A DNA stretch of 64,000 nucleotides from Hormiphora californensis (Eukaryota; Animalia; Ctenophora), in the NCBI GenBank assembly GCA_020137815.1, contig CM035359.1, forward strand, positions 6,634,001-6,698,000, in the 5' to 3' direction. The translations under genes were made by a program, and so were the position numbers. Below the pieces are notes generated by a model. That model did not search any database. It worked only from the letters and a program-made list of their open reading frames with translations, and had not been told where the DNA came from. Below, one piece after another: positions 1,167 to 10,100 of this stretch (positions are counted from its first letter, which is position 1; the number at the start of each line of letters is the position of its first letter).

Positions 1167-4100
1167 ATGGGCCGTCTCCGATGGTTGACATGCTGCAGCC
1201 GGGTGACGGGGGGTCCCACCACCCCTACCAACCATCACGGCTACACAAGATCAATTCCGGATACCAGCAGGGACCAGCAGCCGGGGAATACAACTGCACG
1301 GTCACCTATGTATAAAATTAAAGAGGTAAAGCAATGTAAACACATGTTAACCCCAATGTAAACTACCAATTTTAATTGGTTTAGCACCGGCAGTACCGTT
1401 TTTGCGAAAGCTGGGACTTTTCACCCAGGATTGATTGAAATGTGACTCGTACATTTCACAATATATCGTCAATAAATAGTTTTACGTTGCAGTTGATGAA
1501 CGTTTGATACATCTAAACATCTTTGTTTGTCTTGTTTTAATTGTTCATTCTTTGAATTACTTCCCGTATTTTCCACTCTTCGTCTGAGAATTCCTTATTT
1601 TCACCCGCCAGTTGGGATTAAAACGATTACACACATGTGCTAAATAGATGTCCCAGTTGTGAGACCCTTCTAAGACTATATTTGTAGATTAAAACCATCA
1701 AAATAGCTCCTCCTCCTTCTCAAGACTATTTTTAGACCTGACAACTAGATGGAGCGGCCGGCCCCTTCACCCTTGTAATAGCCTGCCATCACCAGGAAGC
1801 CTTGTTGTTTATGAAGATCACCAAATTAGGTCCTATAAGATCTGTTCTAAAAATAGAACGTATATCTGGACTATCTGGACCTCTGCGCTTCTTTTGAACT
1901 ATCAACGTAAATAGGCGTTTCTTTCCCATGGAAAGCCCCACGTCTGAATTGACAATCTGGCTGATAGGCTGCTCGAGAATTTCTGAAAGCGCGTTTTTAA
2001 ACAAAACAGTCGAATTATGCCCTAAATAACCCACTAACTGATATGAAATTGCCACAGTCTCTCATTTTCTATCACAGCACCAAGAAAACGGAGCTGACAT
2101 AACCTGTAATAAACTCTCCACTTTTTAATAGTTAATATAACAAACTCTCCTTTGCAGGTGGGTCCAAGTGAAACAGCGTCAAGTGATGTGTGGCTACAAA
2201 TTAACGAGGCGTTATCGTATCCCACACTGGTGAAAGCAATTCAAGGAACGGCAAGGAAACTCGTTCCAACCATGGTATAATTTCTCTCTCGATCTTTCTT
2301 CCTCTCGCCTCTAAAATAGTCAAAATCACCGACCATTAGTCTCAAAAGCTTGTATTGATATTATACAGCGCGAGTTATGCTAACCACCTCTTTCCAACCA
2401 CTCAGATGGAGGCCCATGTGTTTCTATTGACACCGGAGACCAGTGAAATAGAGCTGTACAGCACATCGGGATGCCTCGGCAAAGTACTCCCTAAATCGGG
2501 TGCCGTTTTGTAAGTTTAAATTTCCTGTTTGACATTCGGGAAAGGACTTCATGGCATACGAAAAATGTATTCGTGTTGTCCAATATTATTCGTATTACGA
2601 AAGTTATTGGACAACAAAAAACAACCCGTTGTATTGGAATTATTATCACCGGCTTTATGGCTATGGGCAGGACTTGCTAATTAACTTCTGTTCCTACAGT
2701 GAGGCGATGAAAGGTAGTTTACCGTTAGTTAAAATCGGTCTGGAACCCTCAGATCCTCTTTACACTGTTCTAGATCTTTCTAAATCACGGGAGTCTTCAA
2801 AAGTAACTGGTAAGAGAAACACTTTGATGGGATCAAGTGATTAGCATTTTGATTTGGGAAAATGTAAATGAAAGACGAAGGTGTGGAAGATCTAACATAA
2901 CACGTCTGTAAAGCTCATTTCCATTTTCTCAGTGATAATAAGCCCTCTAAAGCAAGATTCGAAAAGATACGGATGTTACGTTCTAGTAACAAGTCTTAAC
3001 TTTGGGAAAACACAACAAGAAAATGTGAAAATACTCCAGCAATACGTGAGTCGAGATGTGCATGGTTCATGTTTGTGTGTTCGCTTATTTGAGTATTTGT
3101 CACTTTGCTCATGCTTGTGTGTCTTTTAGTTCTTTCCGAGCAGAGAACAGTTATGCTGCTGTCATGTTCATTCTGAAACAAAAAATTTACGTCTAAAAAA
3201 GTCTCTAAAAATGAAATATTATGTTGTCACCGTTTTTTAAACATTTTCTTCCCTATTTTCCTCATCCTTTGTAGAGGAGACCGTGTCCTACTCTCTGAAG
3301 GAGGGGTATCATCAGTAGTATAGTGTGGACCGCTCGCACCTGATTCTGTGACGTGGCGGGGCACCAAGTCACGTGACCAACACGTGACGTCACATGGTAT
3401 CACGTGACCTGAATACTCTGCTGCTATTGGACGGTTGGTTGTCACGTGACACATCACATGACCAATCACGTGATTTATCATGTGCCAAGTCACGTGACCA
3501 ACACGTGATGTGACATGGTATCACGTGACTGTAGGCACGTGATGATCATGTGACCCATGTTATAACCATGTATGGTGAGTCAAGTTATGACCATATATGG
3601 TCAATTTGTCTGTACCATGTTATGACCATATATGGTCAATTTGTGATGGATGATCATTTGAAAATATCCAATATATCATTCGTGATTATCAATGATCATT
3701 CATGATTATGAGTGATCATTCGATAGTCATTTTTATAAGACGCAAAAGGGAGACTATTGTTACAACAGTAGGGGAAGTGAAATATTACAACAATGGCATT
3801 ACACATCGGCCTCACTTTCTTGTTCATCACCACTCTCATCCTCAGATGTCTCACTATCGAATTCCTGATCAGTCACATTTTCAACCCTATTTTGAGATTT
3901 TCTCGGATTGTTAAAAACCAAACTTGGAAATCTCTTTTTCGTAAACTTGACAATTAGTTTAATTGCTGATTCCAAGGTTTTGTCGTAAACATCGGTGAGC
4001 TTCGCTTCATTGTAGACTATTTCTCTTATACTATCTCTTGCTGGAAGAAGTTTCTTCTTTTCTTCTAGAGTTAAAATTATCTCTCCATCAAGAACTGCCT

Positions 4101-7100: not shown

Positions 7101-10100
7101 AATATTTTCAAATGATCATCCATCACAAATTGACCATATATGGTCATAACATGGCACGCCGGCACGGACAAATTGACCATATATGGTCATAACTTGGCTC
7201 ACCATACATCGTTATAACATGGGTCACATGATCATCACGTGCCTACAGTCACGTGATACCATGTCACATCACGTGTTGGTCACGTGACTTGGCACATGAT
7301 AAATCACGTGATTGGTCATGTGATGTGTCACGTGACAACCAACCGTCCAATAGCAGCAGAGTATTCAGGTCACGTGATACCATGTGACGTCACGTGTTGG
7401 TCACGTGACTTGGTGCCCCGCCACGTCACAGAATCAGGTGCGAGCGGTCCACACTATACTACTATCATCCTCCTCTTCTTCCTCTCCGGATGTAAAATCT
7501 TGTAAAGACAGGGCTATCTCCTCCATGTGATCCTCTATGTCCGATCCAGCCATATCTGGTTCAGACCCAAAGACATGGACCATTACATGGCCATTTTCAT
7601 CGTCTGGACTGCCTCGGCTTATGAAAAATGTTCGAACCATCCTCTCTTCTAGATCACTTTCATCATCATCATCATCATTGTCATCATCATCATCATCTGA
7701 ATCCTGGTCCCCTCTCCTCCTGCTAGGTCCTGGTTGATTATCTCGCTGCATCCTTGCCAGTAACCCCTCCACAGGTCCATGTTTCTCATCCAAATGAGGC
7801 CCAATTTCAGGGATACTCAACCGCTCCTCGCACATTGGACATTTCACCTTCCGGTCCTGGCATTTGGCCCGGTGTTCCGTTAACTTAAATCGCTCCATCT
7901 CGACCCCGCACCATTCACATTTCCCCCGACCTTTACAGGATTTAGCCAGATGGTCCTCTGCATCAGCCCGACTAATCCTCTCCTTACAGTGCTCACAAGT
8001 TGTCTTTTTGGCACCGATTAACCTTCTTATGGCAATGTTTGGGGTGGTTTTAAAGCGTTCATTCCTGCACGTGGGGCAAGACTTACACTTTTCAGCGCAC
8101 CCTGCACAGAACACCTGGTGGCAGCAGGACGCCTCTACTGCCTCCCGGCACAGGTCCTTACAGATCGGGCAGGTCAGGTTATCCTCTTCCGTATCAGACA
8201 TGGCGTTGAACTATAATTGGGGGACAGAGTGATGCTACAGCGGTGTTATTGCAAAGAAACTATACGATCAAAGGAGGTTTATGGGCTTGTTGTCAACTGA
8301 AAAGCAAATCAGTATACATGTAGTACAGTTTGGAGAGAGTGTACTGTGCAGTAGCGTCCCGTAGTGTATGTGTAAACTAGATAAGTATAGAGTTTGAAGA
8401 TGGGAATGGGGGTATCAGTTACCGCCATATTGTCAATAAACTGGTTTAATTTCCAAACGTATCATCCGAGTCTGTATTTTGTTCGTACTTTGGAACTGTC
8501 AAAGAGGGAGTCTGGGCCCAAACTCCAAAGTGTGTTTCACCAACATGTCTTCAGGTCCAGTCGGCAGCTGCACGGGTGGTGAAACATGAAACAATGAGGT
8601 ACAGCCACTGCCGGGCGGAGAAGATGTTAAACTTCTGCGTGGAACTCTACCAGATGAACAGTACCAACTTGATAGAGACCATACTGAAACAAGTGCTAGA
8701 GGTAGGAACTTGATTCAGACGATTCCCGGGTGTCTTAGATTGTCTAGCATCCTTTCTTTTCAGACAACTGACGCCTCTTTATTTTCAGACCACTGACGCC
8801 TCTTTCTTTTCAAACCACTGACGCCTCTTTCTTTTCAGACCACTGACGCCTCTTTTTTTCAGACAACTGACGCCTCTTTCTTTTCAGACCACTGACGCCT
8901 CTTTCTTTTCAGACCACTGACGCCTCTTTCTTTTCAGACCACTGACGCCCCTTTCTTTTCAGACAACTGACGCCTCTTTCTTTTCAGACCACTGACGCCT
9001 CATTCACGGCCCTCATGGTACCAGATCAACACGAACAGGAGCTGGTTGTTCACCTGTTTGATGGAGGGTTTCAACTGGAGAATATAACTATCGATGTAAG
9101 TGAGCCCCACCTCTATAATCCCATTCTGTATCTTTCCCACTCTCCCCTCTCTCTGACTCTGTACCCCTCCACTTCCCTCCACCCCAGCTGGAGAAAAGTC
9201 TTTATGGTGTTCTGATAGAGGCTGGACTACCAGTAAACATGACAAATACGAATAAAGATGGAAGGTTCAACCAGGATCACGATACGTTAACAGGTTAGTG
9301 AGATTGTTACATTAATTAAGGAGAGAAAAGTGAGATTGTTACATTAATCAAGGAGAGAAAAGTGAGATTGTTACATTAACTAAGGAGAGCAAAAGTAAGA
9401 TTGTTACATTAACTAAGGAGAGAGTAATTATTGTAATTCCCAGGTCGAGATATAAACACAATGGTTGCCCTGCCTTTGTTCGCTGATCCAACACATAAAA
9501 CACGGGCCATGATTTGTGCATTCAACAAACGTGGCCTCAAATTTAACACGTAAGGTTGCTTTTAGAAAATGATACATTTTAAAATCTGTTAAAGAAACTT
9601 TCCTGGTGTTTTAACGAACTCCATTACTACTAATATCTTTACAAAGAAATACATTCCCCTATACAGGTTTACAAAGGGTGACGAAGATGCCCTAGAGTTC
9701 ACAATGAACTTCTGCTCTCCTATCCTGAACAACGCCCTGACATTCGAACAACAGCTCTCGTCAAGGGAACGAACGCAGGCACTACTAAAAGTTGCCCAAA
9801 ACCTTTTTACCCGATTTGATTCCGTTACAGTGCTTCTACGGGAAATTATGCAGGTAATATATTGTTATTTATACTTTACTCTGCGTTTCCTAATGACTTC
9901 TGTCTCTGTGTGAGGGCCGGTCACGATTGCTGCGCCCGAACCCAGGTCACAATGTACAGAGAGATCTGAGCCCGGAAAATCGGGGTCCGACTGTATTTTA
10001 TAAAACTACTTTATCACATTGGTTGAACATTTGAAACTATGAGATTTGATTGGATCAGAAATTGTAACTTTGTATCTGTAATTTAGGAAGCTCGGATGCT

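Follow-up and report, generated by a model that had tools for sequence, protein, structure and literature searches.

A 4.15-kb non-autonomous Polinton with a capsid-only gene set in the comb jelly Hormiphora californensis

How can a mobile element endure that encodes the parts of a viral shell and none of the enzymes that would copy, integrate or fill it? The question is raised by a 4150-bp insertion in a 64,000-nt stretch of the Hormiphora californensis genome (contig CM035359.1, positions 6,634,001 to 6,698,000; hereafter the window, in whose numbering all coordinates are given). The element occupies positions 3314-7463, begins with AGTAGT, ends with ACTACT and carries four open reading frames (ORFs). 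We find that the feature is real, that by membership it is a non-autonomous Polinton (Maverick), and that its unusual capsid-only gene set has apparently been maintained for a long time. Our leading reading, which we hold tentatively and at somewhat less than an even chance, is that it is a satellite that makes its own capsid and relies on a full-length helper Polinton of the same host.

Polinton ends around a set of capsid genes

The end motif of Polintons/Mavericks is (AGT)2 or (AG)3 (PMC8097293). The element has (AGT)2//(ACT)2 ends within terminal inverted repeats (TIRs) of 402 bp (left) and 411 bp (right), which are 95.9% identical, show no mismatch over their outer 253 bp and form the longest inverted repeat of the window. 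A 6-bp target-site duplication (TSD), ATCATC, lies directly outside both ends, as is typical of this group. The flanks are the two in-frame halves of one intronless host ORF for a RING (C3HC4) zinc-finger protein; together with the sizes of the empty-site jumps described below, these halves corroborate the TSD independently. The host protein carries additional Cys/His fingers, its tail is acidic, and its last 26 codons are exchanged for 9 element-derived codons. The left TIR holds 9 of the window's 43 CACGTG (E-box-like) motifs as well as 45-bp repeats in its interior, and may be an array to which factors of the host or of the element bind. A 16-nt pattern taken from the termini matched viral contigs at 7 internal places; these contigs share no blastn similarity with the element, and the matches were set aside as chance.

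All four ORFs are open (143, 103, 431 and, from the first ATG, 279 amino acids), in the order zinc finger (ZnF, minus strand), PW-position gene, major capsid protein (MCP) and penton. The MCP model (predicted local distance difference test, pLDDT, 87; 79-sequence alignment) has as its best Foldseek match the capsid protein of Paramecium bursaria chlorella virus 1 (PBCV-1; E 1.2e-17), and also resembles the double-jelly-roll (DJR) capsid proteins of iridoviruses, mavirus and Sputnik. The penton model (pLDDT 82; 17 sequences) matches the mavirus penton (E 7.9e-10) and adenovirus penton bases. On these predicted models the element therefore carries the capsid pair of Polintons/Mavericks, a DJR MCP and a single-jelly-roll penton. 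Pfam held no family for the MCP, the penton or the PW-position ORF, and a PDB sequence search gave nothing relevant. A TATA box stands 34 bp ahead of the MCP ATG and another 34 bp ahead of the ATG at 6099, and since the spacing is equal, 6099 is the likely penton start.

The two small ORFs are less easily assigned. For the 103-aa ORF, an analogy with adenovirus protein VI would point to a putative membrane-lytic role. Its sequence shares 39-48% identity with the gene immediately ahead of the MCP in 16 related loci, the place termed PW in vertebrate Mavericks (PMC8097293). The 143-aa ORF had been described as C2H2/core-like. Its C2H2 match lies below the Pfam cut-off (E 0.002-0.005), and ESM Atlas returned generic C2H2 leads alone, under 0.9; a 40-residue stretch weakly resembles the 107-aa PZ-position gene located after the ATPase in related elements (hhalign probability 20%, E 0.001), and because the C-terminal motif of that protein is missing, the core-like assignment is poorly supported and serves as a lead.

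No enzyme gene accompanies this set. A tblastn search with the integrase, ATPase, protease, PZ-position, basic and protein-primed DNA polymerase B (pPolB) proteins of related marine Polintons, the last as a 188-aa fragment, gave a best E of 0.7 across the window. Neither a pPolB nor a retroviral-like integrase is found in the element or the window by ORFs and tblastn, nor a packaging ATPase or adenain protease by tblastn of the window; Polinton ends and a TSD without mobilising enzymes are the marks of a non-autonomous Polinton. Polinton ends are origins of protein-primed replication and substrates of a retroviral-type integrase. As such ends need pPolB and integrase and the element has neither, the enzymes must come in trans.

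A preliminary description of this locus had named the AGTAGT termini, a perfect ATCATC TSD, near-identical TIRs of ~390 bp, four intact ORFs including a DJR MCP and a penton, and the lack of pPolB, integrase, ATPase and protease, and on each of these points our analysis agrees. Its proposal that the unit was replicated in trans and recently integrated as a discrete 4-kb molecule is likewise supported by the Polinton ends, the TSD, the empty sites and the missing enzyme genes.

Table 1. Features of the element and of the interrupted host gene (window coordinates)
Feature	Coordinates	Strand	Basis
Host RING gene, 3' end, 26 codons + stop, in frame with the 5' part	3227..3307	-	ORF
Left TSD, ATCATC	3308..3313	none	sequence; empty-site contigs skip element + one TSD
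Left TIR, 402 bp, starts AGTAGT, 9 CACGTG motifs	3314..3715	+	repeat comparison
143-aa ORF: one C2H2 finger, helical domain, acidic tail; private to MCP clade; candidate regulator/core protein	3799..4230	-	Pfam, hhalign, searches
TATA-like tract (predicted promoter) separating the ZnF and PW-position ORFs, which diverge	4260..4269	none	sequence
103-aa ORF, QTGAG motif, PW position	4318..4629	+	identity to relatives' gene; gene order in PMC8097293
431-aa DJR MCP (predicted fold); TATA at 4641	4675..5970	+	structure model
Penton/minor capsid protein (predicted fold); 279 aa from first ATG, likely start 6099 (260 aa); TATA at 6065	6042..6881	+	structure model
Right TIR, 411 bp, terminates ACTACT	7053..7463	-	repeat comparison
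Right TSD, ATCATC	7464..7469	none	sequence
Host RING gene, 5' part, 246 codons	7464..8201	-	ORF, Pfam

Four sequencing runs (X1, X3, X4 and X8) were compared over positions 2300-8500 via assembled contigs. Empty-site contigs occur in three of the four, with jumps of 4156 bp (X1), 4156 bp (X3) and 4153 bp (X4), the 4156-bp jump being the element plus one TSD; the insertion is therefore polymorphic, present in some individuals only. An assembly artefact is ruled out, as interior, junctions and empty site all occur in independent runs, and a domesticated, fixed copy is ruled out by the polymorphism. The capsid genes might still be kept by the host as a decoy, in the form of a domesticated or interfering cassette that blocks a Polinton or a giant virus. 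Their intactness would suit this, as would the virophage-like interference known for related elements (PMC11296320), but a polymorphic insertion that interrupts a host gene between near-identical TIRs is what a selfish mobile element would leave, and we consider a decoy highly improbable.

The element also appears to be repeated. Summed contig depth of the ZnF-MCP region relative to the flank, which is not a copy number, is 2.0x in X1, 11.8x in X3, 4.2x in X4 and 10.1x in X8, and outer-TIR depth relative to the interior, likewise not a copy number, is 17x, 3.6x, 2.5x and 0.05x, respectively. The outer-TIR excess suggests that other elements share these ends in X1, X3 and X4, and that the ends differ in X8. 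In X1, element termini are joined to other flanks (at least one loose end at 3314, at least two at 7463-7464), and these joints could be those of further elements that carry this TIR. Among the indels listed inside the element, 5/5 in the four-run comparison and 12/12 in a second run comparison lie outside ORFs or keep the frame. Penton codons of run X12, in a biased subset of 40 of its 148 variants, show 21 non-synonymous and 14 synonymous changes, which weighs against strong constraint. The penton region 6233-6853 reaches ~5x the depth of the MCP region in X8, and joints in X4, X8 and X12 jump its central part, suggesting further versions of the penton whose middle domain varies.

Relatives on small contigs

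An MCP search gave 92 matches among 3370 candidates, the named members of the cluster being gene models of Pleurobrachia bachei, one of which (P0093) has a near-identical MCP followed by a penton, in the element's order. The closest full-length-type relatives, with MCP identities of 49-55%, are marine contigs that carry integrase, ATPase and protease genes. A JGI scan gave 26 loci, 18 of them of at least 1900 bp and 17 of these with a real MCP; in 15 of these 17 the penton precedes the PW-position gene, and a protease follows the MCP in all nine loci that extend past it. L013 and L009 read integrase-ATPase-PZ-position-basic-penton-PW-MCP, and L015 has a pPolB-like fragment on the opposite strand (judged by eye; no Pfam hit). 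Going by these gene orders, the element's arrangement, ZnF(-)-PW-MCP-penton, cannot be derived from the marine full-length layout by one deletion. Elsewhere, scans of IMG/VR, run both with the MCP and with the alignment built on it, returned no relative, and a GTDB scan gave three short contigs of metagenome-assembled genomes (MAGs) with MCP pieces; a 24-aa match in that scan, and loci L026 and L037, were discarded as chance. The Polinton MCP fragments on short contigs in bacterial MAGs (L034-L036) are probably mis-binned eukaryotic or viral DNA. One full-length-type marine Polinton contig carries two tandem penton genes (L006:454-2075).

The preliminary description had proposed MCP phylogeny and the ratio of non-synonymous to synonymous substitution rates (dN/dS) as checks. 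In a rapidly built tree with 47 rows selected from the MCP matches, the element falls inside a 15-row clade of small contigs (Shimodaira-Hasegawa-like approximate likelihood ratio, SH-aLRT, 99) that includes both P. bachei models in the tree. MCP dN/dS against L001 is 0.064, a value from a single pair at near-saturated dS (~2.1) and with a partner of unknown context. Contigs with an in-clade MCP (n=37) are all of 5953 bp or less, whereas 23/79 outside the clade exceed 6 kb; counting representatives only, the contrast is 0/11 in-clade against 23/79 (Fisher p 0.059) and is hence suggestive, not proven.

The zinc-finger gene appears to travel with this clade. Its protein family has 8 related members among 13 matches in 1.84 billion representatives, on 22 recorded contig sizes with a maximum of 4857 bp; one protein was seen on 21 contigs, of up to 4857 bp, and a second on 13, of up to 4308 bp. 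Five of the 22 sizes equal MCP-clade sizes (2743, 3767, 4220, 4308 and 4857) and none equals an out-of-clade size. By these equal sizes, the private ZnF gene is common to subfamilies at 93%, 78% and 76% MCP identity, whose contigs reach 4.2-4.9 kb. One contig from seawater spans ZnF(-), PW and MCP, arranged as in the element, at ~95% identity and with intact frames.

The rearranged order, the private ZnF gene, the divergent 4.2-4.9-kb subfamilies and the low dN/dS together argue that this is probably no random one-off deletion; judged from these comparisons, the element is probably a long-lived unit dependent on trans-supplied enzymes. The earlier statement that a random deletion would not leave such a unit is thus probably borne out. 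Deletion may nonetheless have recurred, starting from a parent that was not seen and whose genes were already rearranged. A Pleurobrachia Polinton family with ZnF-PW-MCP-penton at one end could have given rise, by internal deletion, to a non-autonomous or defective-interfering 4-kb unit amplified in trans, the same event recurring in several subfamilies and the capsid genes being intact merely from recency. Non-autonomous Polintons are known, reportedly from the work of Kapitonov and Jurka in 2006; short units in high copy are easier to assemble than long ones, and the parent in this host may have had another gene order. Other layouts do exist: in P0135 a ZnF relative is joined, on a single strand, to the C-terminal end of a penton, and in X8 and X12 a penton start has different upstream sequence. 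Most Maverick copies are moreover defective, 96% in vertebrates (PMC8097293). Recurrent deletion sits less well with three subfamilies (76-93% MCP identity) sharing a private gene and a size ceiling, with the intact seawater layout, with the TATA and AACCATG contexts conserved ahead of the element's genes, and with the lack of a parent among the 37 in-clade contig sizes. We regard it as unlikely, though far more credible than a decoy.

A possible satellite of a helper or a possible segment of a divided genome

If the element is a satellite, a division of labour can be proposed. The partner's protein-primed polymerase would copy the unit from its AGTAGT ends and the partner's retroviral-type integrase would insert it, producing the 6-bp TSD. 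The shell would be built by the unit's own MCP, penton and PW-position protein, filled by the partner's ATPase and matured by its protease, and the zinc-finger protein may regulate the unit or coat its DNA. In favour of this reading we count the empty sites, the evidence of ends shared with other elements, the predicted capsid folds, the small ZnF family tied to the MCP clade, the low MCP dN/dS, the spared reading frames and the gene order unlike that of full-length relatives. A packaging ATPase of the same group is also present in P0281, a gene model with a name in the P. bachei format.

The same observations can be explained without a complete helper, by taking the element as the capsid segment of a multipartite polintovirus, whose genome is split over several linear molecules of 4-6 kb that share TIRs, replicate together and integrate separately. 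The canonical genome would then be divided into integrase; ATPase, PZ-position and basic genes; the capsid block; protease; and pPolB. The restriction of the 15-row clade to recorded contigs of at most 5953 bp suits this reading, as do the three contigs of 5824, 5848 and 5953 bp that hold a 59% MCP subfamily, and the excess of TIR over interior depth, which MITE-like (miniature inverted-repeat transposable element) copies would explain equally well. An ATPase search, of which we compared the best 120 of 239 matches, points the same way: ATPase contig sizes coincide with 6/79 out-of-clade and 0/37 in-clade MCP sizes, and P0281, a P. bachei-format gene model of an ATPase with 65% identity to that of L013, has its three closest relatives on contigs of 5548, 2468 and 2763 bp. 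There is also a precedent in Vesanto virus, with up to 12 segments, some of 3.3-5.8 kb, similar terminal repeats and a pPolB (PMC8363768). Against a divided genome, no sister segment has been read, the size contrast is non-significant on representatives, metagenome contigs are short and broken by repeats, the ATPase comparison covers only part of the matches, and no segmented Polinton was found in the literature searched. For bidna-like viruses, a search for second segments came up empty (PMC8502044). We rate this reading as possible but doubtful, somewhat behind a satellite and ahead of recurrent deletion.

Several points weigh against the satellite reading itself. No full-length element with the same TIR or an in-clade MCP was seen (0/37 in-clade sizes exceed 6 kb), and neither P0281 nor the layouts of P0135 and X8/X12 link a partner to the element's TIR; the missing >6-kb in-clade contigs and the absence of an ATPase size match suit segments no less well. 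The capsid on which a helper's ATPase and protease must act would moreover be diverged from the helper's own. The selection recorded in the MCP may belong to a full-length parent, because the context of L001 is unknown, and the co-occurrence of ZnF and MCP is read from equal contig sizes rather than from sequences. X8 has the interior and almost no outer TIR, no record in the run contigs spans a whole second copy, and neither a complete second copy nor free DNA nor a virion is shown. Viral metagenome X15 holds three 151-bp contigs of the element, too little for a virion claim, and missing host-flank cover in X12 was not accepted as a sign of free DNA. Evidence of expression is thin: X17 has 3 short contigs of the element, two of them of 151 bp, and X18 one of 623 bp, and these contigs are not shown to be RNA.

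Comparison with known systems and implications

Like Polintons/Mavericks (polintoviruses, animal adintoviruses), the element has (AGT)2//(ACT)2 ends, ~400-bp TIRs, a 6-bp TSD, a DJR MCP, a penton and a PW-position gene. It differs from them in lacking pPolB, integrase, ATPase, protease and a canonical PZ-position gene, in placing the penton after the MCP, in carrying a private ZnF gene on the opposite strand, and in its 4.15 kb, compared with 12.7-24.6 kb for intact vertebrate Polintons (PMC8097293). Like non-autonomous Polintons and remnants, it would owe its movement to cis-acting ends and trans-supplied enzymes. The C. elegans remnants, however, are partial pieces of the pPolB end (PMC11414722), whereas the element holds a complete capsid set in divergent subfamilies, and the nine elements that lost capsid, ATPase and protease genes together suffered the opposite loss (PMC4028283). 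Drosophila Vesanto virus and bidnaviruses share with it linear 3.3-5.8-kb pieces, similar terminal repeats and a pPolB on one piece (PMC8363768); they are single-stranded DNA viruses with parvovirus-like capsids, unlike the element with its DJR capsid, integrase-type footprint and no sister segments shown. Entomopoxvirus-associated polinton-like viruses without integrase resemble it in coding for a capsid and possibly using integration genes in trans, but they have their own replication genes and depend on a poxvirus, and the element lacks replication and packaging genes as well (PMC11296320).

A parallel in concept is offered by capsid-forming phage-inducible chromosomal islands (cf-PICIs), integrated satellites that make their own capsid and borrow other functions. 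For cf-PICIs it is the tails that are borrowed, whereas integrase, replication and packaging genes are their own. Their proteins are unrelated to those of the element, which has no integrase, replication or packaging enzymes.

Beyond the element, the window contains nested inverted repeats at 21577-22497 (arms of 254-295 bp with 95% complementarity), which may be a hairpin-like MITE; two long uninterrupted host ORFs, for a calcineurin-like phosphatase (PF00149; 18923-19861, plus strand) and a cytochrome P450 (51811-53352, minus strand); and, at 47601-48215, 10285-10812 and 8702-9058, a direct duplication of 295 bp, perfect throughout, as well as minisatellites of ~34 and ~25 bp.

Our literature search, which left most subscription papers and supplements outside its reach, found no description of a capsid-only or segmented Polinton and no paper joining Pleurobrachia with a Polinton. 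As either a satellite or a segment, the unit would be a case of capsid genes maintained on a molecule unable to copy, integrate or package itself, and such maintenance is hard to explain unless animal Polintons form particles and complement in trans; Polinton/Maverick particles have not been observed (PMC8097293). If the segment reading is true, a comb-jelly Polinton lineage would be a segmented, integrating double-stranded DNA virus, with pPolB, integrase and ATPase segments elsewhere in the host genome under the same TIRs. This would be a new genome architecture for DJR viruses and, as far as our searches reach, the first multipartite one. If the satellite reading is true, this small, polymorphic and apparently active unit of an early-branching animal would be a eukaryotic counterpart of the capsid-forming phage satellites.

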